The position numbers were made by a program, and so were the translations under genes. Under the pieces are notes generated by a model. That model ran no database searches, was not told the DNA's origin, and saw only the letters and a program-made list of their open reading frames with translations. A DNA stretch of 64,000 nt, taken from a virus. Positions 29,119 through 48,055 of this stretch are shown here, one piece after another. Numbering within the stretch: the first letter of the stretch is position 1; each line of letters begins with the position of its first letter. The DNA lies in the IMG/VR virus record IMGVR_UViG_3300050505_000464. One strand, given 5' to 3'.

Positions 29119-29373
29119 TTACGCGGCTTTCTTCAGCAGTTTCGTTGAAAGCCAGGCGACCGCGAGCGTCGTCACGACGCCGGCGACGATGGGGAAGAGC
29201 AAGCTCTGCTCCGCCGCCGAGATGATCGTCTGACGGCTGCCATTGACGCAGCCCGCGCACTCAGGAAAATCCGCGCTCACGCCGTCCGGGCAGATCTCGC
29301 AGTCCCCGCCGGACGAGATCATGCACGGATCGCACTCGGCGCCGAGTCCTCGGATGCTGCGTGCGTAGCTCAT
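29119..29373 (-). CDS. Small Cys-rich C-terminally anchored membrane protein (putative virion protein)
   Basis: IRGLG near N-terminus; C-terminal TM helix followed by KLLKK. Confidence 0.7.
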   Translation of the reverse strand: MSYARSIRGLGAECDPCMISSGGDCEICPDGVSADFPECAGCVNGSRQTIISAAEQSLLFPIVAGVVTTLAVAWLSTKLLKKAA

Positions 29374-29376
29374 CGA

Positions 29377-29838
29377 TCACTTCTTCAGCGAGACCCAAAC
29401 CGCGAGCCCCGTGATCGCACCGATGACCGCCACCGGCACGACCACATCCCAGCGCAGCGCTCCCGAGAAGGTCGTGACGGGCTCCCCTTCGGTGAGCGCG
29501 CCTTGCGCATTGCATCCGCAGCCGAGTCCCGCGATCGGTTTCTCGTACACCGGCTTGAAGTAGGCACCGATGCCCGTGCGAGAGTACTCGCCGACGCCGT
29601 CGACCGGACGGTAGGTGCTCTTCTGCGGAAACATCCCGAGACCTGCGATCGGCTTCTCGTACACCGGCTTGAAGTACGCCCCGAGCCCCTCTACCGCGAG
29701 CCGCGGCGGACCGACGAGGTTGGGGTTCGGCATGAAGGAGGGCCAGGGCGCCGTCGACCAGCCCGGCGAGCCCGCGTGCCACGGCGAATCCGGCTGGTGC
29801 ATCCGGTAGTACTGCGGCTTGATTTCGGCGTAGCTCAT
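29377..29838 (-). CDS. C-anchored membrane protein with repeated G-h-G motifs (putative virion protein)
   Basis: VEGLG, IAGLG x2, VDGVG, RTGIG; duplicated AYFKPVYEKPIAGLG; C-terminal TM followed by KK. Confidence 0.7.
   Translation of the reverse strand: MSYAEIKPQYYRMHQPDSPWHAGSPGWSTAPWPSFMPNPNLVGPPRLAVEGLGAYFKPVYEKPIAGLGMFPQKSTYRPVDGVGEYSRTGIGAYFKPVYEKPIAGLGCGCNAQGALTEGEPVTTFSGALRWDVVVPVAVIGAITGLAVWVSLKK
29531..29676. repeat. 32-bp intragenic direct repeat (31/32 identical)
   Basis: GCGATCGGyTTCTCGTACACCGGCTTGAAGTA at 29531-29562 and 29645-29676. Confidence 0.9.
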
Positions 29839-30506
29839 TGGTCGTAGGCCTTCTTCAGGAGATCGTAGGCGGCTGTTGCCGCGATGAATCGTGCTTTCGC
29901 ATCCGGGTTGCCCCCGTTGCGATCGGGGTGCCACTTGAGGGCTTCGCGCTTGTAGGCGGCTTGCACCTCAGCGAAGGTCGCGCTCCGTTTGACTCGAAGT
30001 GTTTTCCGAGCAGCAGCGATGCGCACGTCCACCGGATTCGGCGGAGGAGGCGCGCCGGGCGGCGGCTCTTTTGGCGGAGCCCCGGCCGCACTCGCTTGTC
30101 CGCTGGGTGCCGCTCGCGGATCGGTCGGATTACCACGCGTGCCCGCGGGCCACGGGATCTTGGGGGCGTGATCGGTGATGCCTTGCTGGATGCAGCCGAA
30201 GCACGCGGCCTGCCCCATGCGCGAGACGAAGCTGTGGTCGAGGCAGACGGGCTTCCGGCACACGCAGCACGCAGCGATAGCCGGACTCGAGCAGGGGACG
30301 CCGATCTGCGTCTGCGCGTCGCGGTAGACGACCTCGCACGGGATGCCGAGGATGAGCTGGGGGAGCCATAGCTGGGTTGCATGACGAGTGAGATCGTTGA
30401 TCCAGGGACCGATGGCGAACAGGACATTCCGGGGACCTTCGGGAGCGCCATCCGCGAATTGACTCGCGATGCGCCCGAGGGCGCCGAGAAAGCCTTCTTT
30501 CGCCAT
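29835..30506 (-). CDS. Zn-finger plus C-terminal J-domain (DnaJ-like co-chaperone)
   Basis: EVQAAYKREALKWHPDRN...AKARFIAATAAYDLL with intact HPD; Cys/His cluster PCSS..AACCVCRKPVCLDH...ACFGC. Confidence 0.85.
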   Translation of the reverse strand: MAKEGFLGALGRIASQFADGAPEGPRNVLFAIGPWINDLTRHATQLWLPQLILGIPCEVVYRDAQTQIGVPCSSPAIAACCVCRKPVCLDHSFVSRMGQAACFGCIQQGITDHAPKIPWPAGTRGNPTDPRAAPSGQASAAGAPPKEPPPGAPPPPNPVDVRIAAARKTLRVKRSATFAEVQAAYKREALKWHPDRNGGNPDAKARFIAATAAYDLLKKAYDQ

Positions 30507-30557
30507 TCAGCGGAGGGTAACACCAGGGGCATGGGGATCCAACGACAGCGCAGGCGC

Positions 30558-30962
30558 TCAGAGTTTCAGCACGTAAAAGAGCAGGGCACCCGCCATCACG
30601 CCAATGCCTGCGCTCGCGAGATCGGGCTTCCATGCGGGAGCCGGTTGTGGACCGATCTGGATCGTGGCGCTCCCATCGGCGCCGAGCACGCCGTCCTGGT
30701 ACGCGTACCCGAGCCCCTGCATCGCCTGCGGACTGAAGGCGGGCAGGAAGGTGCGACCGAGCGTGCCGTCTTGGTACGAGTGGCCCGGACCCGAGACGGC
30801 GCGGAAGTTCGCGCGGGTGCGGCGCGGGCCTGAGACGAGGCGCGCGACTGCGCCGAGCGCGCCGTCGCCGAATTGGCTCACGCTCGCTTGGTAATCCTGG
30901 AAGGGCGCTGCTTGCGAGAACAACCCGTCGTTGTAAGCCGCTTCTCCGATGCCTTTGTACAT
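30558..30962 (-). CDS. C-anchored membrane protein with DGxLG repeats (putative virion protein)
   Basis: YKGIG, MQGLG, DGALG/DGTLG/DGVLG; C-terminal TM. Confidence 0.7.
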   Translation of the reverse strand: MYKGIGEAAYNDGLFSQAAPFQDYQASVSQFGDGALGAVARLVSGPRRTRANFRAVSGPGHSYQDGTLGRTFLPAFSPQAMQGLGYAYQDGVLGADGSATIQIGPQPAPAWKPDLASAGIGVMAGALLFYVLKL

Positions 30963-30983
30963 GATGATCCCTTTTGTCTTTCT

Positions 30984-32048
30984 TTACCGACGACCGCTGA
31001 GCACGAAGCGCCCAATCAACAGCCCGATGGCTCCGCCGACAAGGAGACCAAAGATCTCCGCCTGCGCGCTCTCTGTGCGGAGCTGAGTGCAGGCGCTCGC
31101 TTCCGTCTCATCCGGGTAGAGCGCGGAGCAATTCGCTTGAAGCGAGGCTTGACTCCGGAATACGTCGAGCGGGTGCGTCATCGGTGACCAGGGTCAATGG
31201 TACCGGAGGGGGGCTTATTGGCGCAAACTTCTGAGGCGAGAGCTCACTTCAGCATGCCCGCCACATACGCCTGAGCGATGAGGCCGGAGTTGGGCGTGGT
31301 GCCCTGCTGCACGATGCCCGCCGAGGTGCCGTTGCCGAAGACGACCACGAAGTCATTCTGGGGGTTGGCAGCATTTTGCACGAGCGCCCAGAGGCCCGCT
31401 TGCTTGCCCGAGGCGTCCGCCTGCTGCTGCCACTGAGTGAGCGTCAGCGTGAGGGTCGTGGGGTTTTTCGGGCCGGGTGGCACCGTCATGGATGCCGCGC
31501 CGGGACCGGGGACGGGCGGTCCGGCGTTCGCGGCGGGGGAGGACGCGGACGAGGCCTTCGCGTGCTTCACGAAGAGCACAACCGCGCCCACGCCAACGCC
31601 GCCAATCAGTAACGCTTTTCCAAGACCCATGACTCTCTCCTTCAGAAATGCTTCGACACGTGGTGTCCGTATTTGATCCCGAGCACCGCGCCCGCGCCGA
31701 GCGCGAGACCGATCCAGGCCCACGTGGGGACGCCTGCGCGCATCTCGGCGTCGCCGAGACCGACGGCACGCCCGGCAAGCTTCAGGGGGTTGGCGTCGAT
31801 CTTCATGGCGGCGGAGGCGATCTTCTCGAGATCGGCCGGCGACATCACAAAGTCCATCAGCTCACGAGCCTCCGCTTGGGAGGCTGGAGCGTGGCCCAGA
31901 AGATGGCCCCGACGGTGCCGATCGCGAGCGCCCAGAAGATCTTCGTCGAGGTCGGCATCGGCGCGACGATCGGCGCCGGCAGCGCGTCAGCGCCCATGCC
32001 ACATCCGCAGCCACCGTCCGTGCCGCGCAGCGCAATGATGCCCGCCAT
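30984..32048 (-). other. Four small membrane-protein ORFs (30984-31181, 31244-31630, 31642-31857, 31857-32048)
   Basis: Each has one hydrophobic helix (three C-terminal, one N-terminal) flanked by basic residues. Confidence 0.65.
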
Positions 32049-32866
32049 CAGGAAGCCCTCCGGTAACGCTCGATGAGCTTGTAACCGCCAATGGCCGCGA
32101 CGGTGCCGAGACCCACCCAGAGGAGCGCCTTCATGTTGGCTCGCGCGGGCGACGCCATGGAGGCTTGCTGCGCCTGCGTCGCAGGCATCGTCGGCACGCT
32201 CGGTAGCGCCGTCACGGGCGCGGTGGGCGACACGCTAGGGGAAGCGGGGATCGTGGTCTGCACCGCGGGCGTTTGCGGGACCGTGAGCGGCGCACGCGCG
32301 GCTTGCGCGCTGAAGGCGCTCGAGAAAGATCCCGAGGGAGGCGCTGCGCGGTCAGAGCCCGCGCGCGGGATCGGCAGGATGTACGCGAGCACGCCGCCGA
32401 CGACGGTCGCGGCGTAGTTGAGCGAGGTCGGACCCGTCTTCGGATCGGTCTGATCGCGTAGGCGAAGCCAGTACAAGAAATAAATCTGCGGCGTCGCTTG
32501 CGTGTCGAGCTGCGCGTAGACGGCTTCGGTGTGATCGTAGGCGAAGGGCGTGCCTTCGAAGGTGCTGGCCACAGCGCTCGCGCGCGTGAGCACGGGCGAG
32601 ATGACCGCGAGCGCTTGTACTTCGGAGCTCGTGGTGTTCGCGACGGCAACGAGCTGGAAATCGGAGACGGCGAAGGCTTGGTAGTCCTTCGAGGGTGTGG
32701 CCTCTTGCCAGGACGAGTCGCTCGTCTGGCGCGCCCACTCGGTGTACACGAGCGATCCCTGCGGGCTCACGATGCTGATGAGCGCCTGGTCCGCAAATGG
32801 CAGCGCCGCATCGTCGGCGCCGAGGCCGGACACGTCATTGCGATAAAAAGAGGGACCGAATTTCAT
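32048..32866 (-). CDS. C-anchored membrane protein with Pro/Ser/Thr linker (putative virion protein)
   Basis: N-terminal FYRNDVSGLG; beta domain; PST linker; TM followed by RYRR. Confidence 0.7.
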   Translation of the reverse strand: MKFGPSFYRNDVSGLGADDAALPFADQALISIVSPQGSLVYTEWARQTSDSSWQEATPSKDYQAFAVSDFQLVAVANTTSSEVQALAVISPVLTRASAVASTFEGTPFAYDHTEAVYAQLDTQATPQIYFLYWLRLRDQTDPKTGPTSLNYAATVVGGVLAYILPIPRAGSDRAAPPSGSFSSAFSAQAARAPLTVPQTPAVQTTIPASPSVSPTAPVTALPSVPTMPATQAQQASMASPARANMKALLWVGLGTVAAIGGYKLIERYRRAS

Positions 32867-32890
32867 GGGGTGCTCAGCGAGAAAGAATCA

Positions 32891-32997
32891 CGAGGAAGCA
32901 ACCGTGCCCACCTGTCAGGACAACCCACTGCCGCATGAGGTTGTTTGGTCCTCGGTTGGAGTGAGAAGGTTCGGGGGTTGGCACGGTTGCTCCTTCG
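32891..32997. promoter_or_regulatory. Intergenic long-range inverted repeat (structured RNA element)
   Basis: 18-bp arms 32891-32908 and 32980-32997 (16/18 complementary, 12-bp perfect core) enclosing a CAACC/GGTTG inner stem. Confidence 0.6.
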
Positions 32998-33023
32998 AGA
33001 AGGGATTGCGGGGGACTGACGGA

Positions 33024-33860
33024 TCAGTAGCCTCCCGGCTTTTCGATGCAGGGCGCGAGAGCTCGCTGCATCGCATCGAGCTGCCCCTCGGGCAGCATGA
33101 AGCCGAAGATCTCGGCCTCGAAGAACGCGATCGGGATCGTGACCGCGCGGAAGATGTGGCAGCTCGGGATGAGCGTCTGGGTCGAGCGCAGGATCCAGGG
33201 AGCGGGCACGTGGAGCAGGCCCTGCCGGTGGTGGCGCTGGGGCATCAGTGACAAGTCGCCCGTGCCCGACTGCGCGTTGGTGAAGCGCGCCTGCGTGAAC
33301 TGATCGTCGCTCGCCGAGACCGCGACCGGCGTGCCCGGGATGTAGCCGGGGTTCGGCTGGGTTTGGTAGGCGGGGTTCGATTTCTCGAAGGGCGGGACGG
33401 GGTTCAGCTCGTAGCGAAAGTTGCCCTGGCGTGTGTTATCGGCTTCGAGGTTCCAGCCCACTTGCGTGGGCAGGCGGTTCTGTTCGAGCTCGATGAACTC
33501 GCCCGCGACGATCCCGCTTGGGCGGTAGATCGCAAAGCGGTAGTCGAGCACGACGAAGCCCATCAGCTGCGGCACGCGGATGCTGCCCATCTCGAACTGA
33601 CACGGCGCCCCGGGCGTTGCCTGGAAGATGCCGTCGATGGGCAGGCGTCGAAAGACGTACTCGAGCGGGATGATCGAGTCGGGCTTCAGGTAGCTCGCGA
33701 GCTGTCCACCAGCGAGGAGCACCCGATCGGCCGTGCAGGCCGTCATGCTGCCGCCCTCTTGCGAGGGGCCAAATCCTTGCCCGAACGCGATGCTCGGATT
33801 GGCCTGTTGGATCTGGCCGAAGGCCGAGCGCTGCGCGGGGCTGAACAGAGGCTGGTTCAT
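33024..33860 (-). CDS. Putative single-jelly-roll capsid-type protein 3
   Basis: Soluble, beta-strand pattern: SIRVPQLMGFVVLDY early; PAPWILRSTQTL and EAEIFGFML late, parallel to the two neighbouring genes. Confidence 0.4.
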   Translation of the reverse strand: MNQPLFSPAQRSAFGQIQQANPSIAFGQGFGPSQEGGSMTACTADRVLLAGGQLASYLKPDSIIPLEYVFRRLPIDGIFQATPGAPCQFEMGSIRVPQLMGFVVLDYRFAIYRPSGIVAGEFIELEQNRLPTQVGWNLEADNTRQGNFRYELNPVPPFEKSNPAYQTQPNPGYIPGTPVAVSASDDQFTQARFTNAQSGTGDLSLMPQRHHRQGLLHVPAPWILRSTQTLIPSCHIFRAVTIPIAFFEAEIFGFMLPEGQLDAMQRALAPCIEKPGGY

Positions 33861-33874
33861 GGGCCTCTAGTGTA

Positions 33875-34795
33875 TCAGTAGGGGCCGCTGCCTGGGGGCT
33901 GCACGATGCGATAACCGTGGAAACCGATCGTCAGGATGCCGTCCGGGAGGCGCGTGATGGGATCGGTCGCGCCCGCTGCGGCGTCGGCCTCGTCGTTGAT
34001 GCCTTCGACGTAATCCCAGCCGGACGCAATGAAGGGGAAGGACCCGGCTCCGCCACCGGCGAAGGACTGGATGTTGCCGTACGAGGGATTGTTGATGTGC
34101 TGGGGTAGCACATTGAACGTCATCGTCTCGCCTCGCTCGAACACGTCCAAGGCGCCGAGCGCGAAGGGCGCGTTGATCTGCGGCGTCCAGAAGGAGCTCG
34201 GGACGGGGATGTTGGAGCGAGGGAAGGAGGATCCGGCGTTCAGGAACTGAATCGAGTAGTCCGCTTCCATCGATCGGAAGGGAGAGCCGTTGGACGGCGA
34301 AAGGATGTGGGGAGCGCCTGTCCCGGGGAAGGCTTGTTGCTGCTCGGCTTGTCCACGCGGCATGCCATCCATCAGATCCCAGGCGGAATGAATCGGGCGG
34401 TAGCGACCGAAGGAGCGGCCGAAGAAGTTCGCTTTCGCACCGGAGGTGGGGTCGATGCGCTGAAGCTGCAGCTGGCTGATGAAGGTCGCCACGCGGGCGA
34501 CGGCGACGAAAGGTCCCTCTTGGGAGACCAAGATCGTGCCCTGCTTCACGCCGTTGTCGTTGGCGCCGATGAGGATGTTGACGAGCATATCGAAGGGCAC
34601 GCGGCGCCCGGGGATATTCTCGATGTACATCAAGTTCGGGGTGCGCTCGCGGTTGCCCTGCTGCACCTTGAAGTTCGCTTGGATGTCGTCCAGGCGCTTC
34701 TGGATGGCTTGCGTTTGTGTCAGCGCTTCGCGGGCGGAAGCGGCGGCATAGTTGACCGACTGCATGAGTCGGTTCGGGTCGAACGAGTTGCTCAT
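33875..34795 (-). CDS. Putative single-jelly-roll major capsid protein 2
   Basis: TILVSQEGPFVAVA, QFLNAGSSFPRSNIPVP, PFALGALDVFERGETMTFNV and LTIGFHGYRI; pattern recalled from two-MCP tailless prokaryotic viruses. Confidence 0.5.
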   Translation of the reverse strand: MSNSFDPNRLMQSVNYAAASAREALTQTQAIQKRLDDIQANFKVQQGNRERTPNLMYIENIPGRRVPFDMLVNILIGANDNGVKQGTILVSQEGPFVAVARVATFISQLQLQRIDPTSGAKANFFGRSFGRYRPIHSAWDLMDGMPRGQAEQQQAFPGTGAPHILSPSNGSPFRSMEADYSIQFLNAGSSFPRSNIPVPSSFWTPQINAPFALGALDVFERGETMTFNVLPQHINNPSYGNIQSFAGGGAGSFPFIASGWDYVEGINDEADAAAGATDPITRLPDGILTIGFHGYRIVQPPGSGPY

Positions 34796-34858
34796 GATGT
34801 TCTGAGTGCCTTCTCCGCTCGGCGGATGAAGTACCCCGCGAAGGGCGGGTGCCTACAG

Positions 34859-34905
34859 AAAAACCAGGTGAGCGGCTCAGCCCCGAAGAGCGAGCCGCTG
34901 ACCTG
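34859..34905 (-). terminator. Intrinsic terminator / attenuator after putative MCP 1
   Basis: 14-bp stem (13/14; arms 34865-34878 and 34892-34905) followed on the minus strand by TTTTT (34863-34859). Confidence 0.75.
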
Positions 34906-34947
34906 TTGGTTCAATCCGCTCAGGAACGCCCCGAGCGGACCGAATCG

Positions 34948-35703
34948 TTACTGCACGTCTCGGCTGAACAGCCCGTCGAACGTGAACGTCACGACCTTGT
35001 TGATCGCGTCGATGGCGTTCAGGTTGTCGCGGAGGCTCAACATGTTTCGCTGACCTTGGCTGGTCGCCGCGATCTGCGAGTTGGCGTCCGTCGGCAGCGC
35101 GTAGATGTTCGCGGTGCACTTGATGTTCTGGCGCGGTGGGATCAGGATCGCGCGGGCGAGCCGCAAGATGCCCGAGTGGCCATCCGTGCCGGAGTTCTGC
35201 ATGTGGATGAGGTCCGTCGCGCCGCCGAGCTGCGCCGAGAGACCGCCGCCCGTGGGGAAGTACCAGGTCGGCATGTTGGTGATCGAGAACTTCTCGCCGG
35301 TGCCGAAGCTCCAGTGAAGTTGCTCTTCCGTCTGCCAGTGCAGACGAAACACGTCTTCGATCTGGCCGGGGGCCTGACCGACGCCGGCGCCGGCGCCCGT
35401 CCACAGGTCGAGGTTGCCGTAATCGCCGTTCAGGGCGAGCTCGCCCGTCACGCCGCCCGCGACGCGGAGGATGCTGTTTCGGTACCAGCTGAACACGCGC
35501 AACGCCAAGACGACGTGCGACTGATCGGACGGCAGGGTCGATCCGTTCAGGAGGTTGGTCGTCGCCGGGGTACGGACGGCGCCGTTGCCACCGAAGAGGT
35601 CGGTCCCGTCCTGCACGTTGCCCGCGGTGTAGCCGCCGGTACGGATCAGGGTGTCGAAGAAGGGCTGGTGCACGCGCTCACGAATGGAAACTACTTTGGC
35701 CAT
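34948..35703 (-). CDS. Putative single-jelly-roll major capsid protein 1 (251 aa)
   Basis: QPFFDTL...DLF...TNLLNGSTLPSDQSHVVLALRV and RLARAILIPPRQNIKC...VTFTFDGLFSR; strong AAGGAAG RBS; terminator downstream. Confidence 0.55.
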   Translation of the reverse strand: MAKVVSIRERVHQPFFDTLIRTGGYTAGNVQDGTDLFGGNGAVRTPATTNLLNGSTLPSDQSHVVLALRVFSWYRNSILRVAGGVTGELALNGDYGNLDLWTGAGAGVGQAPGQIEDVFRLHWQTEEQLHWSFGTGEKFSITNMPTWYFPTGGGLSAQLGGATDLIHMQNSGTDGHSGILRLARAILIPPRQNIKCTANIYALPTDANSQIAATSQGQRNMLSLRDNLNAIDAINKVVTFTFDGLFSRDVQ

Positions 35704-38063: not shown

Positions 38064-38393
38064 TCAGCGGAGCACGAAGTACGCGGTCAAGCAGGCGGCG
38101 CCGACGAGGAAGTACGCGTTGAGCTTCGGGCGGCGCGCGAGCGCTTCTTGATTGAGCGCGAGGGTGACTTTTCCGGGCTCGGCGAGCTGAGCGGCCGTGA
38201 TGGCCGATTGGCGCACGATGAGCTCGGGGCTGCCCGTGCGCGGGAAATCCGTCGTATCGCTGCTCGGTGGGTAGGGCGCGGTCGGGAGCGTGGACCAGAC
38301 GGGGGAGAGGCGCGCGAGCGCGGCCTTGTATGCCCGCACGCGTGCCGCTTGTGCGGCCTGCAGCTCTTGGGGAGTCGGGGCGGCGGCGCTCAT
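38064..38393 (-). CDS. Small C-anchored membrane protein
   Basis: C-terminal AYFLVGAACLTAYFVLR. Confidence 0.65.
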   Translation of the reverse strand: MSAAAPTPQELQAAQAARVRAYKAALARLSPVWSTLPTAPYPPSSDTTDFPRTGSPELIVRQSAITAAQLAEPGKVTLALNQEALARRPKLNAYFLVGAACLTAYFVLR

Positions 38394-39963: not shown

Positions 39964-40530
39964 TTAGCCGACGATCCCGTCTTTTTCGACGCCCAGAATG
40001 TCGCCCGTGATGATCGCGCAGAGCTCGCTCCGCGTGTAGACGATCAGAAACGTTTGGTGAGTCTCCGGGTGCACCGCGGCACCCACGTACGCGCGCGTGA
40101 TGTCGATGGCGCGATACGTGTCCGAGAGCACGAGCTCGGAGTCGTCATCCTCGGGCTCGGCGTACGGCTGAAACTCCAGCCCCAAGATCGGGGCGAGCTC
40201 GGCGATGACCGTCGGCATGCGCGCGGGGAGCGTCACTTCTTCACAGGGGAAATCGAGGCGTTTGCGCGACGTGTAGTCGACGAGGAAGCCGTCTCGCACA
40301 AAGAGCTGCTGCGGGCCTTCGGCGACGTGCTTGTAGTCCTGGTAGTCGCCGCGCTTCTTCCACTTGTCGCTCGTGTATTTCACCGCCTCCGACTGCCCCA
40401 CGCAGTAGAGCTTCTTCGGCCACGACCAATGGATGGGGATCTTTTTGTCCACCTTGCGATCGACGAAGGTCTCCCGGATCCGCTGGGCAGACTCGAGATC
40501 GGATCGGTTGATGAGGAGGCGACGGCCCAT
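39964..40530 (-). CDS. Soluble hypothetical protein within the structural operon
   Basis: 188 aa; VKYTSDKW...YKHVAE motif; ends GIVG. Confidence 0.6.
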   Translation of the reverse strand: MGRRLLINRSDLESAQRIRETFVDRKVDKKIPIHWSWPKKLYCVGQSEAVKYTSDKWKKRGDYQDYKHVAEGPQQLFVRDGFLVDYTSRKRLDFPCEEVTLPARMPTVIAELAPILGLEFQPYAEPEDDDSELVLSDTYRAIDITRAYVGAAVHPETHQTFLIVYTRSELCAIITGDILGVEKDGIVG

Positions 40531-40551: not shown

Positions 40552-40881
40552 TTAGCGGCGAGATTTACCTAGCAGAAACCCTAAGCCCAGGGCGACCAAG
40601 ATCGCTGCCCCGAGCTTCACCCCGTCGGATGACAAATCCAAGCCGAGCCCCTTGAGCCCAGCGGTGCTCATGGGCGCGATCATCCCGCGAGCGATGGGTC
40701 CGGATCCGATCAGCACCCTATCGCTCGGAATGGCGCGGCCGATGTCCGTCGAGGCCACGCCGAGCTCAGTGGTGTTCGTGAGGGAAGGGACGGGCAGATC
40801 ATCTCCGAGCCCGTAGCGCGTGCTCGGGCTGTCGAAGTAATCGTACCCGCCCGTGTCCGGGCGCCAGCGGGAGTAGATCAT
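40552..40881 (-). CDS. C-anchored membrane protein
   Basis: RYGLG, LKGLG; TM followed by KSRR; start assigned at MIYSRW. Confidence 0.65.
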   Translation of the reverse strand: MIYSRWRPDTGGYDYFDSPSTRYGLGDDLPVPSLTNTTELGVASTDIGRAIPSDRVLIGSGPIARGMIAPMSTAGLKGLGLDLSSDGVKLGAAILVALGLGFLLGKSRR

Positions 40882-40892: not shown

Positions 40893-41405
40893 TTACTCTC
40901 CGCCCGGCGTCTGGTAGTACGTCACGAAGACCGAGCCCGTGTCCGTCGTGCTCTTGGAGGTGACGCGCACGGTCGTCTCGCTGATCGCTTCGGCCATCAG
41001 CGCGCCCTCGGTGCCCCCGAATGCCGTGTACGACACGTGGAACCACCCGCCGGGATTCACGTCGAATCCCGCGATGTCAACGAAGCTCCCGCTCTCGTTG
41101 GCGACCAGATCGCCCGTGCCCATCTGCACGAGCGCGACGAAGCGCCCAGCGACGGCGCTCGATCCGAGGCCGTTGATGACGTTCGCCATGCCGGAGATGT
41201 CTTCCGAGATGGCGACGGCCATGTTCTTTTTGAGGCGGTACATGCGGTTCGAGTCGCGCACGTAGAAGAGCGTCGCGGCCGGGAAGGCGTTGACGTTCTG
41301 GCCGCGGAGCGATTGGCCGTCGGACTTGTCGTCCTGCACGCCGACCGTGTTGAGGATCGTGACGCGTTTTCCGACGCCGATGTCTGAGGGTGCGTTGTCT
41401 GCCAT
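40893..41405 (-). CDS. Beta-rich protein, paralog A (spike/vertex candidate)
   Basis: Shares DG.SL.GQNVN.FPA..LFYV..SNR.Y.L.KN and V..G(L/I)GSSA.AGRFVA with 41449-41928. Confidence 0.65.
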   Translation of the reverse strand: MADNAPSDIGVGKRVTILNTVGVQDDKSDGQSLRGQNVNAFPAATLFYVRDSNRMYRLKKNMAVAISEDISGMANVINGLGSSAVAGRFVALVQMGTGDLVANESGSFVDIAGFDVNPGGWFHVSYTAFGGTEGALMAEAISETTVRVTSKSTTDTGSVFVTYYQTPGGE

Positions 41406-41448
41406 GTGAATACTCTCTTCTCTTGCTTGGGTGATGGTGGGGTTGGGA

Positions 41449-41928
41449 TCAGAGCGCGGCCGGTGACTCCACGAAGACCGCGAGCACCTGCGAGTTGTCC
41501 GAGTTGGAAGAGCTCGTGACGGTCGCCACGTTGTCGGCGGTCTTGGCCGCGTGGATGATGCCCGGCGTGCCCGAGGCGGTCACGTAGCTCACCAGGAATA
41601 CTCCCCCCGCCGACAGATCGAGCCCGGTGATGACGCCGGTGCCGTTTGAGAGCTGGGCAACGCCGTATTGTTGCACAGCGACGAAGCGTCCTGCCTCGGC
41701 CGAAGACCCGATCCCATCGACGACGTTCAGGCCGTTTTGGGAGCCGACCGCATCGGGCAGGTTTTTGCGCAGGGTGTAGAAGCGGTTGGACTCGGCGACG
41801 TAGAACAGCACGCCCGCCGGAAAGTTGTTGACGTTCTGGCCGGCGAGCGAATCGCCGTCGGTCTCATCACCGATGTGGGTAACGACGACGAAGCGCTTGG
41901 ATGGCGGGAGAAGAGCGAGATCCGACAT
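41449..41928 (-). CDS. Beta-rich protein, paralog B (spike/vertex candidate)
   Basis: Clear tandem paralog of 40893-41405. Confidence 0.65.
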   Translation of the reverse strand: MSDLALLPPSKRFVVVTHIGDETDGDSLAGQNVNNFPAGVLFYVAESNRFYTLRKNLPDAVGSQNGLNVVDGIGSSAEAGRFVAVQQYGVAQLSNGTGVITGLDLSAGGVFLVSYVTASGTPGIIHAAKTADNVATVTSSSNSDNSQVLAVFVESPAAL

Positions 41929-41938
41929 GACTTGTCCT

Positions 41939-42832
41939 TCAGGCCGAAGCCTTTTTGGTGAGCAGGTTCTTGATGACGTAGGGCGCGGCGAGATACATCG
42001 CGTAAATCGCTACCCCTCCGATCGCGTACGGCACGAAGGCCAGCAGCGTGTCTTTGACCGCCTTTGGGATCGTGGTTGCGGCGTTCTTGTTGGGATCCGT
42101 CAACGTCGCGACGCACTGCTGCGTCGTCGCGGCGTCTCCCGCGGTCTGAGCGTTTTCGCAGACCTTGGCGACGATGGCGTTCTTCTTGTTCAGATCGATC
42201 GCGCTCACGACCACCCAGGCCAGGAGGCACAAGGCGGCAATCGCCACGACGACGAGACCCCCGACGATCGCCGGCGCGATGCCGAGGCCCTTTTGGGAGT
42301 TCTGGGACTGATCGATGCCGAGCGCCTTGTAGAGGCCGAGGTTCCGCATCATGACAAGCGCATTCATGGTGCCGACCGCCGTGTTGGCGTGGGAGGCGAT
42401 CTCGGCGTCCGAAAGCCCCGAGTGGTGAATGGTCTCGTCGGAGTGCAGCAAAAACGCATAGAGCGACGACTGGTAGGCGTGACTCACGAGGTAACGGATT
42501 GATTCGCGAGCGAGCCCGACCTGCACCTCTTTGAGCGCGGGATTCGGGCCGGTAACGAGCCCGAGGATGGACGAGGCGATCGATCGCAGCGTGTCTTCGC
42601 TCGTCGCGTAGCTCTTCTGAATCGCCACCGGATCGCCACCCACATCGAAGATCATGCCGCCGACCGCCGCCACCATCGCCGCCTGCGCGGGGGCCATGTA
42701 GCCCGTGATGTAGTCCCGATCCCATACGCTCGCCCGTCCGCGCTGCGTGAGTGCGGCCCAGTCGATGCCGCGGAGACCGAATTCGGTCACCGCCAGCCCC
42801 GCGAGATCGTAGATCGTGGCTGTGTTAAACAT
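41939..42832 (-). CDS. Membrane protein with two TM helices
   Basis: QKGLG immediately before TM1; VCENA...QQCV Cys pair between the TMs; basic C-terminus. Confidence 0.65.
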   Translation of the reverse strand: MFNTATIYDLAGLAVTEFGLRGIDWAALTQRGRASVWDRDYITGYMAPAQAAMVAAVGGMIFDVGGDPVAIQKSYATSEDTLRSIASSILGLVTGPNPALKEVQVGLARESIRYLVSHAYQSSLYAFLLHSDETIHHSGLSDAEIASHANTAVGTMNALVMMRNLGLYKALGIDQSQNSQKGLGIAPAIVGGLVVVAIAALCLLAWVVVSAIDLNKKNAIVAKVCENAQTAGDAATTQQCVATLTDPNKNAATTIPKAVKDTLLAFVPYAIGGVAIYAMYLAAPYVIKNLLTKKASA

Positions 42833-42837
42833 CCGCC

Positions 42838-43317
42838 TCAGGTCCCGTGAGTTTTCTTCCAGCGCTTGTAGCTGACGTAGCTCGTGGCCGCCGCGGCCAC
42901 CGCGAGCGCTCCGTACACGTACGGATGGATCTGATTGAAGGGGAGCGTCACGTCAGCGCGGAGCGATGAGACCGGATCGCCCGCGAGCAGGAAGCGCTTG
43001 ACCGCGCCCGGTGCGCGATTGTCGATCGCGAGCATTTCGTTCGGGGCGACGGCGCCCATCGGTACGTACGATCCCTTCATGCCACCGACTCCCTGCAATG
43101 ATCCGTCTTGGAAATAGCCGAAGTCATCGTACGGCGCGCGGAAATGCGCGATGCCGATGTAGCTCCGCCCCGCGGGCCAGCCGTCTTTGAGCTGGGTCGC
43201 TTCTCCCATGCCTCGCTGCCCGGGCATGCTGCCCGGTCCGCAGCCCAGCCCCTGCAGCACCGCTTGCGTAAACGGGGCATAGGAGTTGGCGGTTTCCACG
43301 TACGTGCGACGAGTCAT
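42838..43317 (-). CDS. Membrane-associated protein with G-h-G motifs
   Basis: LQGLG, QRGMG, LQGVG; late hydrophobic helix followed by YKRWKK. Confidence 0.65.
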   Translation of the reverse strand: MTRRTYVETANSYAPFTQAVLQGLGCGPGSMPGQRGMGEATQLKDGWPAGRSYIGIAHFRAPYDDFGYFQDGSLQGVGGMKGSYVPMGAVAPNEMLAIDNRAPGAVKRFLLAGDPVSSLRADVTLPFNQIHPYVYGALAVAAAATSYVSYKRWKKTHGT

Positions 43318-43320
43318 GGG

Positions 43321-44382
43321 TCAGACCAGGCCCTTCTTCTTGGCGTAGTAGTAGCCCGCTCCCGCCACCGCGAGCGCGAGTCCCCCGACGAGCATCGAGG
43401 CGCTCGTGAGGGGATGCTTGCTTGGCGGCGTCGGCGCCGGCGGCGCGACGGCCGGAGGCGTCGATCCACCGGGAGCAGTCGAGGGCGACTGAGAGGCGGG
43501 CTTCTTCGACGGCAGCGTGTACGCCTGGCAATTCTGCCCGTTCATGGTGAGCAGGTTGTTGCCGGTGTTGTCACCGATCCACTTCATCGCGCCGCACGTA
43601 GCCGCGTCGAGTTTGTTCGTGAGGGGGATCGGCAAGTAGCCGTAGCTGTCGAGGATGCGGTTGATGTTTGACTGGAGAGCGGCCATCTCGGCGTCTTCGA
43701 CGCCCCATTGATGGGTGATGGCAGCAGCCACTTGCTGGCCCTGCACCACGTTGACCTGAGGGGCCACGTAGGTCGTGATGGGTTTACTCGCGCCGACGAC
43801 CGTGGGGTTCGTGCCGGGGGAGCTGCCGCAGTAGGCGTACAGGTTGTAGTCGGTCCACACCGTCGATTGACGCGGGGTCGTGTTGTAGAGGTAGCTCGCC
43901 GCTCCACACGTGGCAGGACCGAGTTTCCCGTCGACCGTGATGAGCTTGTAGCCGCTCCGCTTGAGATCGGCGTTCAGTTGCGTTTGTGCTTTTTTCACCG
44001 TCGCCGCGTCGAGCGATGCGGTTTGGTTCGAGATGGCGGCGTACTGGTTACAGTACTTCGGCACGCAGATCGATCCGTCGTTGGCAGCCGAGTACGCCGC
44101 CGTGCAATCGTCGACCGACATGCCGTACTGAGCCGCGTTCTTGACGCAGTCGTCGTGCGCCGCTGCCCATTGCGTGGCGTGGCAGTCCTGAAACTCCTTC
44201 ACGCCCCAGCACTGCCAGGGCACTTCGCCCGGCGCTGCGGAGGAGCCGAGGCCGGAGATGGCGCCGTTCGTGAAGTACTCACCCATCTGACTCCGCTGGT
44301 AGCGTTCGATGGGCGTGTAGCGCGGAAGCACCGAGCCATTGAGCGGGAGGGCGTTCTTGCTCTTGGGGTTGAAAATGCTCAT
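43321..44382 (-). CDS. C-anchored protein with two peptidoglycan-binding-like domains
   Basis: VKKAQTQLN...GY..ITVDGKLGPATCGA and MAALQSNIN..L...GY..IPLTNKLDAATCGA; ISGLG; TM followed by KKK. Confidence 0.7.
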   Translation of the reverse strand: MSIFNPKSKNALPLNGSVLPRYTPIERYQRSQMGEYFTNGAISGLGSSAAPGEVPWQCWGVKEFQDCHATQWAAAHDDCVKNAAQYGMSVDDCTAAYSAANDGSICVPKYCNQYAAISNQTASLDAATVKKAQTQLNADLKRSGYKLITVDGKLGPATCGAASYLYNTTPRQSTVWTDYNLYAYCGSSPGTNPTVVGASKPITTYVAPQVNVVQGQQVAAAITHQWGVEDAEMAALQSNINRILDSYGYLPIPLTNKLDAATCGAMKWIGDNTGNNLLTMNGQNCQAYTLPSKKPASQSPSTAPGGSTPPAVAPPAPTPPSKHPLTSASMLVGGLALAVAGAGYYYAKKKGLV

Positions 44383-44385
44383 GAC

Positions 44386-45114
44386 TTAGCCTCTTCGTTT
44401 CTTGATGAAATACACGGCGCCGATGGCCAGGAGCCCGCCGCCCACGAAGCCCAGGACCTTCTTCGTGCCCGAGCTCACCATCGGCATCGAGCTCGTGACG
44501 GGCGTGAGCGACGCGGTCGTCGGGATGGGTTTCGTGTTGGGGGCAGCCGGTCCCGTGCCGCAGCCCTTGCTCGCGTCCTGCACCGTCTTTACGTCCTGGC
44601 ACGTGGACGGCATGGCCTGCAGGCCCGCGGGGCCCGCGATGACCGATCCGCCGCACGTCGCCGGCCCGAGTTTGCCGTCCGCGATGATCGGGCAGAGCCC
44701 GGCGGCGATCAGGTTTTGATTGATCTTGTTTTGGAGAGCGAGCGTCTGCGCGCTGTATTTCCCCCAGGGGTAGTTGACCGCATCGCTCGAGGCATCCCCG
44801 AGCGTCTGCGCGTGACCGAGACTCGGCGCGCCGGCGAGGTTGCCGTCGAAGACGCCGCCGCCGTAGCCGCCCGGTCGAAAGATCCCTTCCCCCGCGTCGA
44901 TGGGGTTGTTCCCGACGTTACCGAGGCCGGAGTAGGGTTTGTCGGGGATCATGTCGATGTCTCGCGGTGGAAGGAAAACGGTCGTGGGTTGCTGGATCTG
45001 CGGCATCCCGAACACGGGCCGCGCCCAGAGTCCCCCATGAAAGCGCGTCGGGTACGGATTGACGTGCGCGACGTAGGGCGTCGGGACGCCAGCGGGGTAT
45101 CCGGGGTTTTTCAT
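44386..45114 (-). CDS. C-anchored protein with one peptidoglycan-binding-like domain
   Basis: TLALQNKINQNLIAAG..PIIADGKLGPATCG; YSGLG; TM followed by KKRRG. Confidence 0.7.
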   Translation of the reverse strand: MKNPGYPAGVPTPYVAHVNPYPTRFHGGLWARPVFGMPQIQQPTTVFLPPRDIDMIPDKPYSGLGNVGNNPIDAGEGIFRPGGYGGGVFDGNLAGAPSLGHAQTLGDASSDAVNYPWGKYSAQTLALQNKINQNLIAAGLCPIIADGKLGPATCGGSVIAGPAGLQAMPSTCQDVKTVQDASKGCGTGPAAPNTKPIPTTASLTPVTSSMPMVSSGTKKVLGFVGGGLLAIGAVYFIKKRRG

Positions 45115-45116
45115 GG

Positions 45117-45674
45117 TTAGCGGCCCTTGTGGTTGAGGGCGATCATCGACTCGATGCCGAGCCCGATGGGGCCGAGCCCGAGGCCCGCGACCACGCCCCA
45201 CCAGCCGTAGGTCGCTTCCTTATCGCGGCTCGGCGCGACGGCCTTGCCGACGTAGTACGAGCCCACGCCCGTGAGCACGAGCCCGACCGCGACCGCGGCG
45301 ACCAGGATGCCGCTCGCGGCTTCTACCGCTTGGCCGGGAAGCGCGCTCGCGGTGTCCTCACCGAGGCCGCTGACCGCGCGAATGCCGCTCACGAGCGGCG
45401 AGCCCGTGAAGAAGCTCCCGAGCACGCCGCTCCGCGATGCGCCGGGCGTCGGCATCTGGTACAGGCGGCTGTACGCGCCGATGCCGTCCGGCGATCCGGC
45501 CATGCCGCGCCCGAGGGGCGCGAGCGGATGGGATGCGGCGTTGTAGGGAGCGTTGCCGTAGCCGGCGTTCGCCTGCACCAGATCGCTGTGGCGCACGGGC
45601 AGCTCCTGACCCTGGGAAGGGCCCGAGGCCATGGTCACGTGTTGCTCGTCTTCGTCGTCTGAATAATCAAACAT
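45117..45674 (-). CDS. Membrane protein with C-terminal TM hairpin
   Basis: PDGIG, VSGLG; two hydrophobic helices; start assigned at MFDYSD. Confidence 0.65.
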   Translation of the reverse strand: MFDYSDDEDEQHVTMASGPSQGQELPVRHSDLVQANAGYGNAPYNAASHPLAPLGRGMAGSPDGIGAYSRLYQMPTPGASRSGVLGSFFTGSPLVSGIRAVSGLGEDTASALPGQAVEAASGILVAAVAVGLVLTGVGSYYVGKAVAPSRDKEATYGWWGVVAGLGLGPIGLGIESMIALNHKGR

Positions 45675-45678
45675 GGGT

Positions 45679-46383
45679 TTATTTCTTCTTCTTGAAGAGC
45701 GCGTACAGCGCCCCCGCTGCGGCGCCCACGAGCAGCACCTTGCCGACCGTCGCCGCCGTGCTCGTCGGCACGGGAGCGGGGCCGTCACCGAGCCCGCCCA
45801 TCCCTCGCATGCCGTGGATCCCTTGCCGAATGCCCTGGGGGTTTTGCATCCAGTCGGCGATGTTGACGCCGGGCATGGGCGCGGCCTCTTGCCAGCGCAC
45901 CACATTTTGGGGCGTGGAGTAGCGGCCCTGCTCGATGAAGGCGATCTGCGCGGCCGAGTCGAGCGACACGGCGCCCGACGGCACGCCGACCACGCGGCGC
46001 CCGGTCGTCGCGTCCACGACTTCGCTCAGGCTGAAGGGCACTTCGCGCGCGTGGTAGCCGGGGAGGGAATAGCGCGCCGCAAACACGCCCGCGTCCGGGT
46101 GCACGTTCGGGTGCGTACCCGGAGGATCGAAGACGCCGTTCGATTGAATGTCATCCATCTCGGCGAGCAGATTGAGCTCGTTGGAGGCCCAGCCGGGATC
46201 GGCAGATTCGTCGGACACGTCCAGGTCCGTGCCGGCGAGGCGTCGTCCGTATCTCCGATCGAAGGGCGCGCTGTATGCTTCGGCCGTGCCAGACGAGTAG
46301 CGCGTGTCGCTCGGTCCGACCGCGACCATGGACGGCAGATCGCCCGTGTACGGTTGCGCAGGGTAGCGGGGGTAATTCGGCAT
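45679..46383 (-). CDS. C-anchored membrane protein
   Basis: MRGMGGLG before the TM; ends LFKKKK; start assigned at MPNYP. Confidence 0.65.
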   Translation of the reverse strand: MPNYPRYPAQPYTGDLPSMVAVGPSDTRYSSGTAEAYSAPFDRRYGRRLAGTDLDVSDESADPGWASNELNLLAEMDDIQSNGVFDPPGTHPNVHPDAGVFAARYSLPGYHAREVPFSLSEVVDATTGRRVVGVPSGAVSLDSAAQIAFIEQGRYSTPQNVVRWQEAAPMPGVNIADWMQNPQGIRQGIHGMRGMGGLGDGPAPVPTSTAATVGKVLLVGAAAGALYALFKKKK

Positions 46384-46403
46384 GGGGATCTTTTTCTTCT
46401 TCT

Positions 46404-46901
46404 TTAGCCGGTCGCGATTTTGTAGACGACGACTGCTGCGATACCGAGGCCGAGGACGAGGCCCCAATTCTTCTTGTACGACTGCGCTGCCACCGCGGGA
46501 CTGAGCGACGAAGCGCAGTAGTGCACCGTCACCGTACCCCAAGTGCCGGTCGTCGGCGATTGACGAGGCACCTTCTCGTCGAGCATCGTTTGACCCGCGG
46601 GGCATGGATCGGGCGGGTACTGCGAGGGCGCGCTCGAGGGCGCCGGGCAGATGTGACCGGGCGTCGTGAGGATTTGATTGGCGAGCGTGCAGGGATCGTT
46701 CGGGTCGGTGGAGATCGATTTGCCGCCTTGCGCGTTGCACGCCTTCTGCGCCGTTGCCCATGCCTTCGGCTCGAGGCAAGGCAAGCACGAGCAGGTATTC
46801 GGATCGGCGCAATCGACCTTGTAACCCTGGGCGCAGAGCGGCCCACTCGCGGGCCCGCGGAGGCTCGCGCTGGATGACTGGAAGGTCGCCGAATAACTCA
46901 T
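46404..46901 (-). CDS. Cys-rich C-anchored membrane protein
   Basis: W..AQKAC...DPNDPC motif; about 10 Cys; C-terminal TM. Confidence 0.65.
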   Translation of the reverse strand: MSYSATFQSSSASLRGPASGPLCAQGYKVDCADPNTCSCLPCLEPKAWATAQKACNAQGGKSISTDPNDPCTLANQILTTPGHICPAPSSAPSQYPPDPCPAGQTMLDEKVPRQSPTTGTWGTVTVHYCASSLSPAVAAQSYKKNWGLVLGLGIAAVVVYKIATG

Positions 46902-46906
46902 CTGGG

Positions 46907-47275
46907 TTAGGACTTTTTCCTCATCACGAGGTACAGCGCGCCGCCGCCCGCGGCGAGCGCCGCGAGCAGTCCCCAGCGACGAAACCCGCCGGCCGCGCTC
47001 GTGCTGGCGGGCGTGGTGCTCGATGAAGGCGTGCTTGAAGCGGGCGGCTGGTACGGCGCAGGGATCGAGAAGGTCGGGCACGGCGTCATGCTCGCGATCG
47101 AGCAGGGATCGTTTGGATCGATGGTGGCGGCGGTGTTGATGTTGAGATCGCCGAGACCGCGGAGCGCGCGCAGGTTGACGCGGCCCATCTCCACGTAGCC
47201 GAAGCCCTTGACGGACAAGCGCGCGCTGCATGCCTGCTTTGCTGCTTGCCAGGTTTTGTAATCGACACAGGACAT
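46907..47275 (-). CDS. Cys-containing C-anchored membrane protein
   Basis: W.AAKQAC..VKGFG..LRGLG..DPNDPC; Ser/Thr linker; TM followed by RKKS. Confidence 0.7.
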   Translation of the reverse strand: MSCVDYKTWQAAKQACSARLSVKGFGYVEMGRVNLRALRGLGDLNINTAATIDPNDPCSIASMTPCPTFSIPAPYQPPASSTPSSSTTPASTSAAGGFRRWGLLAALAAGGGALYLVMRKKS

Positions 47276-47278
47276 GGG

Positions 47279-48055
47279 TCAGGACGCTTTCGGTTTCTTG
47301 AAGGTGCGGTAGAGCGCGTAGCCGCCGCCGGCGATCACGACGAGGATGAGCCCGTTTTTGACGAGCCCCGCGCTGCGCGTGGCCGCAGCGCTCGCAGGCG
47401 GAGTCGATTGCGGGATCGAGCTCGAGACAGGCACGGTCGCCGGCACGGAGCTCGGGCCTCCTCCCGGCATGCCAGGTGTGGCGCTGCTCGCTGGCGGCGG
47501 TGCCGGCGGGCGCGGCTCGGGACGAAGCGCGGGCGGCGGCGTGAGCGCGGCGGGGCGCGCGGGAGCCGGGCCCAGAGGAGGCGGCATCGGCACCGGGGGC
47601 TGGCACACCGGCAGCAGCGCGAGGGCGCAGGAGGATCCGGTGGGATCGGCGCCGAGTCCCTTGACCGTCGCCGAGACACGCGCGCAGTCCGCCTGCCAGG
47701 CGTCGTGCTGCGCCTGCGAGACGCAACCGGGATAGCCCGGAGGAGTCACGACGCCGGCGGCGCGGGCGGCCGTGTTGGCGCGGTCGCGCGCCACTTGATT
47801 GGCGAGCTGCTGGCGCTGGGCGGCGGCGACTGCCGCGGCGCGGGCGGCGTTTTGCGCGTTGTACGCGGCCATCGCCGCGGCGTAGCTCGACGCGGCGCCC
47901 GCGGAGGCCGCTGCGTAAGCCTGCACCGCGCGATCGTAGGCGGCTTTTTCTTTGAGCCAGGCGTCATGGTCGGTCTGGTAGGCCACCATCGCGCTCGCGT
48001 ACGCGCTGGACGCATCGCCCATGCCCGCGAGCTTTCCGGAAAATGCGTAGCTCAT
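47279..48055 (-). CDS. Ala-rich coiled-coil plus Pro-rich C-anchored membrane protein
   Basis: LAGMG at N-terminus; W..DC..VKGLG.DP...C; TM followed by KKPK; ATGA overlap with the upstream enzyme gene. Confidence 0.7.
   Translation of the reverse strand: MSYAFSGKLAGMGDASSAYASAMVAYQTDHDAWLKEKAAYDRAVQAYAAASAGAASSYAAAMAAYNAQNAARAAAVAAAQRQQLANQVARDRANTAARAAGVVTPPGYPGCVSQAQHDAWQADCARVSATVKGLGADPTGSSCALALLPVCQPPVPMPPPLGPAPARPAALTPPPALRPEPRPPAPPPASSATPGMPGGGPSSVPATVPVSSSIPQSTPPASAAATRSAGLVKNGLILVVIAGGGYALYRTFKKPKAS

Follow-up and report, generated by a model that had tools for sequence, protein, structure and literature searches.

Why does a virus carry a whole run of genes for proteins that end in a hydrophobic helix and a short basic tail, and on which side of which membrane would such proteins sit? 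The question is raised by the IMG/VR virus record IMGVR_UViG_3300050505_000464, in which these genes occupy positions 29119–48055 of the window, the whole 64,000-nucleotide stretch of DNA that was analysed. A first, sequence-only reading of this stretch had described about 18 C-terminally anchored membrane proteins with Gly/Ala-rich helices, K/R tails and no N-terminal signal peptides. Our analysis confirmed that this battery of C-terminal anchors is real and far from chance. As to its role, we lean towards the view that this stretch serves as the particle-building module of an uncultivated bacterial virus with a double-stranded DNA genome of ~110–140 kb, and that the anchored proteins form the complement of a virion lipid layer, with their tails on the DNA side.

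The window has a GC content of 64%, and coding frames were recognised by their high GC at third codon positions (GC3). Between ~21.8 and 52 kb, the genes lie almost all on the minus strand. All 18 open reading frames were recovered on this strand, with the low coordinates by which we name the proteins below, and their GC3 of 0.74–0.89 is coding-like. Over-long starts were moved to the first plausible Met in seven of the frames (29377–29838, 40552–40881, 44386–45114, 45117–45674, 45679–46383, 46404–46901 and 47279–48055) and in the additional frame 31244–31633. Transmembrane segments were called on the Kyte-Doolittle scale (17-residue window, threshold 1.5), with the limits of the anchors refined by flanking charges. 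As a second scale, we used biological hydrophobicity values after Hessa et al. (2005), summed over 19-residue windows.

On both scales, the best hydrophobic stretch falls within the last 45 residues in 18 of the 18 proteins, and the protein at 42838 was added as a weak 19th. These 19 proteins, 63–523 aa long, end in an uncharged run of 15–28 residues (mean 19.6), followed by a tail of 0–11 residues. The summed apparent free energy of the anchors is 0.6–5.3 kcal/mol for the 18 and 7.0 kcal/mol for 42838 (median of the 19, 2.9), compared with 7.4–16.6 kcal/mol for the C-termini of ten non-anchored module proteins. In the first 40 residues of all 19, the best 19-residue window scores at least 8.8 kcal/mol and no Kyte-Doolittle segment is called. 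Because no window scores below this value, the anchored proteins appear to lack signal peptides, in agreement with the sequence-only reading. Fifteen to 16 of the 19 carry a single segment that ends 0–11 residues from the C-terminus and are tail-anchored by these hydropathy scales. The exceptions to a simple single-pass layout are 41939, with three segments, 45117, with two adjacent ones, and 38390, with an additional glycine-zipper region at residues 146–218. The helices of the battery are supported by the hydropathy scales.

Taken together, the tails contain 53 K/R and 2 D/E, whereas the 12 residues preceding the helices contain 30 K/R and 16 D/E. Both tails that had been quoted as examples, LYALFKKKK (45679) and VYFIKKRRG (44386), are present. 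Gly and Ala make up 36% of the anchor runs and 23% of the module proteins as a whole. A small-xxx-small-xxx-small pattern occurs in 12 of the 19 runs, and in 15 of the 19 an aromatic residue lies one to four positions ahead of the first K/R. Anchored genes account for 19 of the 29 genes inside the stretch (curated) and for 2 of ~70 in the rest of the window (Fisher p = 3e-11; the outside count comes from an automatic gene call over the whole window). A Gly/Ala-rich proteome does not account for this clustering, since the base composition is no different in the remainder of the window.

The battery is conserved in related viruses. The gene order is shared with three contigs of metagenome-assembled genomes (MAGs) at NCBI (L001–L005), and a profile search returned 30 IMG/VR loci on contigs of 95–182 kb; single-sequence locus searches with a 306-aa protein from the centre of the module found nothing in the viral and genome collections. 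For this protein and for a neighbouring one of 251 aa, metagenomes contain more than 600 homologue clusters apiece, many of them on contigs of 110–138 kb. In 24 related uncultivated genomes, the orthologues mostly keep their anchors at 25–70% identity, even where the anchor sequence itself has diverged, as in the unrelated pair VVVPVAVIGAITGLAVWVSLKK (window) and KTLLIVAGALVTVGLIVLLK (L001). Among the single-pass proteins of 21 close-clade loci, the helix is non-N-terminal in 170 and N-terminal in 23; the tails have a median length of 5 residues and a mean net charge of +2.7, compared with +0.35 ahead of the helix. In one complete relative (G004; 136,226 bp with a 123-bp direct terminal repeat), 20 of the 36 genes in the block surrounding the capsid genes are C-anchored, compared with 8 of 187 in the remainder of the genome. 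The virus group is widespread but uncultivated, with genomes of 110–180 kb, and we know of no cultivated member. Our literature search found no paper describing the group or such a battery of anchored proteins.

The genes of the module are as follows.
29119–29373, minus strand: 84-aa protein with 6 Cys; C-terminal anchor, tail KLLKKAA (hydropathy; orthologues anchored in 4/4 genomes).
29377–29838, minus strand: 153-aa protein starting MSYAEIK, with repeats GLGAYFKPVYEKPIAGLG; C-terminal anchor, tail KK (hydropathy; L001–L003 keep the anchor, sequence diverged).
29835–30506, minus strand: J-domain co-chaperone with a Cys-rich N-domain, unanchored, among the anchored genes (J-domain visible in the sequence; PF00226 on orthologues).
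30558–30962, minus strand: 134-aa protein; anchor at the extreme C-terminus, tail KL (hydropathy).
30984–31181, minus strand: 65-aa protein; C-terminal anchor, tail RFVLSGRR (hydropathy; no homologue among the relatives' loci compared).
31244–31633, minus strand: 129-aa protein with the sole N-terminal hydrophobic segment of the module, a signal-anchor or signal peptide (hydropathy).
31642–31857, minus strand: 71-aa protein; C-terminal anchor, tail KYGHHVSKHF (hydropathy; 15/18 orthologues anchored).
31857–32048, minus strand: 63-aa protein; C-terminal anchor, tail KRRLVS (hydropathy).
32048–32866, minus strand: 272-aa protein; Pro/Ser/Thr-rich stalk followed by an anchor, tail KLIERYRRAS (14/18 orthologues anchored).
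33024–35703, minus strand: three soluble beta-rich proteins of 278, 306 and 251 aa at the module centre, candidate jelly-roll capsid proteins.
35848–37890, minus strand: 680-aa basic membrane protein (homologues in both clades).
38064–38393, minus strand: 109-aa protein; C-terminal anchor, tail R (hydropathy).
38390–39961, minus strand: 523-aa protein; internal glycine-zipper region and C-terminal anchor, tail KKNR (hydropathy).
40552–40881, minus strand: 109-aa protein starting MIYSRW; C-terminal anchor, tail KSRR (16/19 close-clade orthologues anchored; homologues in 4/8 distant loci).
41939–42832, minus strand: 297-aa protein; three hydrophobic segments, the last one C-terminal, tail KNLLTKKASA (hydropathy).
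42838–43317, minus strand: 159-aa protein; weak C-terminal hydrophobic stretch, tail KRWKKTHGT, borderline (clear anchor in the L002 orthologue).
43321–44382, minus strand: 353-aa protein with 10 Cys; peptidoglycan (PG)-binding-like repeats, Pro-rich stalk and anchor, tail KKKGLV.
44386–45114, minus strand: 242-aa paralogue of the 43321 protein, starting MKNPGY; anchor, tail KKRRG (15/15 orthologues anchored).
45117–45674, minus strand: 185-aa protein; two adjacent C-terminal hydrophobic segments, a possible hairpin (hydropathy).
45679–46383, minus strand: 234-aa protein; anchor, tail KKKK (hydropathy).
46404–46901, minus strand: 165-aa protein with 10 Cys; anchor, tail KIATG (hydropathy).
46907–47275, minus strand: 122-aa protein with 4 Cys; Ser/Thr/Pro stalk and anchor, tail RKKS (hydropathy).
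47279–48055, minus strand: 258-aa protein with 4 Cys; Pro-rich stalk of ~80 residues and anchor, tail RTFKKPKAS.
48052–48588, minus strand: 178-aa soluble transglutaminase-like (papain-fold) protein heading the gene run (Pfam PF01841, E = 9e-6; position kept in L004 and L005).

Searches of the main module proteins against Pfam and PHROGs gave almost no matches, and a megablast of the 19.7-kb stretch against GenBank phages gave none. For the 38390 protein, PHROG matches to tape-measure proteins and lysins are confined to the glycine-zipper stretch, and an ESM Atlas look-alike search returned a score of 0.81, the chance level. AlphaFold2 models of the 306-aa and 251-aa proteins are of low confidence, with mean predicted local distance difference test (pLDDT) values of 63 and 56. 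Foldseek against the PDB gave no match at E <= 0.001, and the weak list was dominated by viral jelly rolls. In exhaustive structural alignments with VIA-align, the top lists were rich in viral jelly rolls at Z values of 5–7, and the SPV1 capsid protein 6oj0_T ranked high for both models: it matched the 306-aa model at Z 6.8 (root-mean-square deviation (r.m.s.d.) 4.1, 140 residues aligned) and the 251-aa model at Z 7.1 (r.m.s.d. 4.3, 127 residues aligned). Proteins of HHIV-2 and HCIV-1 and VP17 of P23-77 matched the capsid candidates at Z 5.5–6.1, and PBCV-1, the STIV turret protein and PRD1/PR772 proteins were also among the structural matches. Because these Z-scores fall in the range that the tool calls common, a jelly-roll fold is no more than likely, and the two proteins are low-confidence capsid candidates. 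A virus-membrane function of the module is likely.

The model of the 251-aa protein (34948–35703) also matches nucleoplasmin-type pentameric histone-chaperone cores (Z 6.3–6.8, ~90 residues). This may reflect a shared beta-sandwich only; the next gene upstream encodes the protamine-like 680-aa protein.

The clearest indication of what the tails might touch comes from this 680-aa protein (35848–37890) and its relatives. It consists of a 366-residue domain with 44% K/R, which includes four SNRRRH/PNRRRH units, followed by 2–4 hydrophobic segments and an acidic domain of GLGEYFSSGV repeats. In a distant clade, with a capsid protein 31–36% identical, extreme C-terminal anchors are rare, and the module still has a run of single-pass proteins without N-terminal helices. 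Their C-tails are 16–100 residues long, Arg-rich and built on an SNRRRR-type unit (G006, 51331–54652 and 77440–78126; L027, 189–1513). In G006 they include KKPVTSNRRRRARRRR, RKPVSPNRRRRRRSRR and QQFSNKKKMASNRRKRRKAAR and one further tail of 96 residues with 28 K/R, and in L027 ASNRRHRRRRRRA and RRSRLRQNRLRQNRLRRRRTRARSYRR. The 904-aa basic membrane protein of G006 repeats the unit of its tails, for example in ANRRRSRRRRSRP and RPNRRRSRRSRRR. A tail thus corresponds to one copy of a protamine-type repeat, which suggests a shared ligand for the tails and the large basic domain on one face of the membrane. The repeats suggest that this ligand is DNA, and make it hard to read the tails as a mere topogenic signal. 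The match in the distant clade supports, more strongly than any other observation, a position of the tails next to the DNA. That part of the sequence-only reading, which had placed the basic tails beside the DNA or core, gains from the comparison, and the accompanying cell-level topology stays a suggestion from sequence.

Two further features of these proteins were noted. The 680-aa protein ends in a conserved GGQGVFG. A 247-aa protein of G006 (L098, 62822–63565) has a reversed layout, with an N-terminal MARRRRTRRSSRHIRMNSRRRRRRS segment, one helix and a C-domain with GIGAYY-type motifs; in this virus group, basic segments occur at either end of the helix, always opposite the motif-bearing domain.

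If the module builds a lipid-containing particle, the anchored proteins would populate the virion lipid layer with their N-terminal domains on the opposite, capsid or outer, side, and the K/R tails and the protamine-like domain of the 680-aa protein would neutralise the genome and tether the DNA to the membrane. Because an anchor leaves the ribosome only at the end of translation, we infer that insertion must be post-translational. The DNA side would be the side of protein synthesis, because tails and a basic domain so highly charged should not cross a membrane, and this favours the membrane and the condensed genome meeting simultaneously. In E. coli, translocation of C-tails fails once their summed hydrophilicity passes ~5–6 kcal/mol (PMC11589881), and 15 of the 19 tails of the window lie above this limit. 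The model for PRD1 begins with a patch of membrane that pinches off into the cytoplasm, after which its lumen is filled with DNA by pumping (PMC6356626). Such a lumen is topologically periplasmic, so that tails on the cytoplasmic side would face the capsid and not the DNA. Assembly would instead be PM2-like or SPV1-like, unlike the empty vesicle of PRD1 that is filled by a motor. The N-out topology of the sequence-only reading could not be kept in the form given, since it mixes the topology in the cell with that in the virion. Its proposal of a route differing from PRD1 gains from the dominance of C-terminal anchors and from the packaging ATPase searches described below, and is tempered by the precedent proposed for PM2 (PMC6356626).

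An assembly like that of PRD1 is, among the alternatives, the one that survives best, and we consider it unlikely. It would give the proteins the ordinary tail-anchor topology, with cytoplasmic, capsid-facing N-domains and tails in the lumen of a vesicle pinched off from the cell membrane; an unrecognised motor would pump the DNA, and the role of the basic residues would be limited to fixing or stopping the helix. With signal peptides missing, N-domains in the cytoplasm are the simplest case, bacterial tail-anchored proteins translocate short tails through YidC (PMC6794478), and a J-protein that would recruit DnaK is encoded in the module. The N-domains also share a motif, h-x-G-[LIMV]-G, with soluble proteins: 15 of the 19 anchored proteins carry it, as do the soluble 40893 and 41449, which suggests a common cytoplasmic compartment. 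The motif is absent from the three capsid candidates. Against this assembly stand the 15 of 19 tails beyond the E. coli limit and the tails of the distant clade, for which passage through a membrane is hard to conceive at charges of +10 over 16 residues or +28 over 96, and a basic domain of 366–600 residues would have to reach the DNA as well. No FtsK/HerA, P9 or ORF13-like ATPase was found in the complete genomes: FtsK/HerA (PF01580) is absent from five records, three of them complete, and with the ATPases P9 of PRD1 and ORF13 of P23-77 as queries, tblastn returned no match below E = 0.7. G004 yielded just three Walker-A proteins, namely ComM/ChlI-like, DnaA-like and DnaB proteins.

The shared motif lies 7–45 residues from the N-terminus in several anchored proteins (at 7 in 29119, 9 in 47279, 12 in 32048, 21 in 42838, 38 in 46907 and 42 in 43321). 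Cleavage at this motif would strip short N-terminal propeptides and leave the anchored part.

Several known viruses come close to the favoured reading, a lipid layer with DNA-side tails. PRD1 (Tectiviridae) has many small membrane proteins encoded beside the capsid gene, an internal membrane under a jelly-roll shell and membrane-attached wall-active functions, to which the proposed particle would correspond. Its membrane proteins, however, are mostly N-terminally anchored (P11, P16, P18, P32, P34) or peptides of 27–47 aa; none longer than 60 aa is anchored solely by a C-terminal helix followed by a basic tail, the P9 packaging ATPase is present, and the genome is 15 kb rather than ~136 kb. For PM2 (Corticoviridae), a virus-specific membrane area has been proposed to bind DNA, with enclosure concurrent with membrane formation (PMC6356626). 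Its transmembrane proteins set the register between membrane and capsid, which is a further likeness, whereas its genome of 10 kb and its double jelly-roll capsid protein differ. Sequence similarity to PM2 was judged from Pfam and PHROGs, where matches were absent. We know of no tail-anchored battery or protamine-like membrane protein in PM2. SPV1 (Portogloboviridae) and HHIV-2/HCIV-1 and P23-77 (Halopanivirales) supply some of the best structural matches of the two capsid candidates, and in all of them a shell of single jelly rolls covers an internal membrane. The nucleoprotein core of SPV1 implies a membrane closing around condensed DNA, and this virus is not known to have a packaging ATPase. 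Archaeal or Thermus hosts and genomes of 16–31 kb set these viruses apart; the Halopanivirales have a packaging ATPase, and the membrane proteins of P23-77 are mixed and mostly N-terminally anchored.

Cellular tail-anchored proteins offer a second comparison. DjlC, Flk and TssL of E. coli lack a signal peptide, are held by one C-terminal helix and insert after translation, and such proteins depend on the signal recognition particle (SRP), FtsY, YidC and DnaK/DnaJ (PMC6794478). They are scattered single genes, unlike the battery of ~20 found here, and translocated C-termini in E. coli are short and fairly hydrophobic (PMC11589881), in contrast to the K/R-rich tails of the module. Outside bacteria, the likeness is one of analogy only, in another domain of life and without homology. 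Tail-anchored proteins of the mitochondrial outer membrane carry a moderately hydrophobic helix and a basic tail that together target them to a non-energised membrane for insertion. Many tail-anchored proteins also enter the internal membranes that poxviruses and other large DNA viruses assemble in the cytoplasm.

From these elements a more specific route can be drawn, which we regard as possible but doubtful. The particle would contain a motor-less, DNA-filled lipid core, in which ~20 tail-anchored proteins and the protamine-like protein zip the bilayer onto the genome, with the basic tails keeping the proteins away from the energised host membrane and steering them to a non-energised viral one, comparable to the sorting of eukaryotic tail-anchored proteins to mitochondria by basic tails, and the J-protein and host DnaK acting as chaperones. 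The J-domain protein might recruit host DnaK and so keep the anchors soluble before insertion. Its gene is present beside the capsid genes in 4 of 4 complete genomes of both clades (Pfam search); our search found no viral YidC. A search for a viral Erv1-type oxidase returned none either, but its control was silent as well, so that this negative carries no weight. An apparent tracking of the anchored battery by this gene, first seen as 20 of 24 close and 1 of 8 distant loci with a copy within 10 kb, was dropped once the Pfam search had located the gene within the structural modules of the two complete genomes of the distant clade.

Membrane-containing bacterial viruses are few, and their assembly is known mainly from PRD1, with a vesicle that is pinched off and filled by a motor. 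If lipid proves present, the group described here would be by far the largest non-tailed, membrane-containing type of bacterial virus known. It would test how a bilayer can enclose DNA within a bacterial cell, what directs tail-anchored proteins to the host or the viral membrane, and whether basic tails double as genome-condensing elements. Motor-less zipping, if true, would add a new route to membrane-containing virions in bacteria.

Several points weigh against a lipid layer with DNA-side tails. The transmembrane calls rest on hydropathy scales and not on a trained predictor, the helices are marginally hydrophobic (summed +0.6 to +5), and both lipid layer and particles are deduced from genes alone. 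The capsid models are of low confidence, with middling structural Z-scores (6–7). N-domains of 40–500 residues without a signal peptide must reach the other face of the membrane, and such export has little precedent; the alternative, a bilayer closing around DNA, is undocumented in bacteria. Possible routes for the N-domains are export by novel means, an open membrane sheet, or insertion into a non-energised viral membrane where short basic tails cross. The number of passes of the 680-aa protein (2–4 segments) leaves the sidedness of its two ends unsettled. The link between the J-domain protein and tail-anchoring is weak, because the distant clade has the gene too despite the rarity of its extreme C-terminal anchors. 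Finally, the unrecognised packaging ATPase is negative evidence only, and a divergent ATPase could escape these searches.

The N-terminal domains themselves raise another alternative, an outer envelope, which we judge improbable. The N-domains would then be stalked ectodomains contacting the host wall, with the tails against an inner core, and particles would arise by wrapping or budding. The 43321 protein matches a PG-binding Pfam model at E = 0.0085 and 16.7 bits (gathering cut-off, 23); among 20 members of the 43321/44386 family, 6 match PG_binding_1 (best 4.7e-5) and 4 match PG_binding_3 (best 1.6e-5). The PG-binding N-domains of the sequence-only reading stay tentative: the assignment depends on 6 of the 20 family members, and the copies in the window fall below the Pfam cut-off. 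Cys counts are even in 10 of the 13 Cys-bearing anchored proteins, a weak bias (p = 0.046). Pro/Ser/Thr-rich stalks of 25–80 residues, identified by reading the sequences, precede the anchors of 32048, 43321, 44386, 46907 and 47279. Together, repeats, Cys counts and stalks are hints that the N-domains work outside the cytoplasm, and the positive-inside rule would place the tails in the cytoplasm. Such an envelope accords poorly with ectodomains that lack signal peptides and with jelly-roll candidates without an export signal, and the nearest structural matches include capsid proteins of internal-membrane viruses (SPV1, HHIV-2, HCIV-1, P23-77).

That no membrane is involved at all has little to recommend it. 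The hydrophobic C-termini would in that case be protein–protein assembly helices, or a by-product of a Gly/Ala-rich, high-GC proteome, and the marginal hydrophobicity of the helices, their Gly/Ala content (36%, and 23% module-wide) and a lipid layer deduced from genes alone fit such an origin. Yet only 2 of 70 genes elsewhere in the same high-GC window have such ends, the uncharged runs of 15–28 residues with an aromatic residue and then K/R in 15 of 19 are typical membrane-interface features, and the helices stay hydrophobic as their sequence drifts. That the C-termini are cleavable sorting signals for a sortase, exosortase or rhombosortase is very improbable: the layout resembles LPXTG and PEP-CTERM signals and one sub-threshold LPXTG_anchor match was obtained (E = 0.85), but the N-terminal signal peptides needed in all such systems are absent, no signature motif precedes the helices by eye, 0 of 19 proteins match NCBIfam CTERM models even at E <= 1, and no sortase-like gene was seen among the module genes scanned.

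Some neighbouring genes and other observations complete the description of the locus. The soluble paralogues at 40893–41405 and 41449–41928 may be part of a spike or fibre; an orthologue on a 135-kb ENA contig has a precomputed match to PF24146 (K1-lyase_C). A soluble 188-aa protein (39964–40530) is kept in 19 of 24 close and 5 of 8 distant loci and has an invariant C-terminal VEKDGIVG. Elsewhere in the window are genes for an integrase (9782–10798), DnaB, a DnaA-type helix-turn-helix protein, ThyX, glycosyltransferases and methyltransferases, one of them Dam-like by eye. Host inference from DnaB gave generic matches only, at 30–35% identity, and the Gemmatimonadales label borne by one MAG homologue is a bin label and not a host assignment. 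In G004 (L036–L042), a ComM/ChlI-like AAA+ protein, a GDSL lipase/acylhydrolase domain and a TnpB/Cas12f-like protein are encoded at 2656–4341, 43027–45597 and 125204–127012. The GDSL domain sits in an 856-aa protein with four hydrophobic segments, and this lipase could bear on lipid handling. In the 137-kb relative L005, an IS1595-family transposase (2937–3953) is inserted just upstream of the transglutaminase-like gene.

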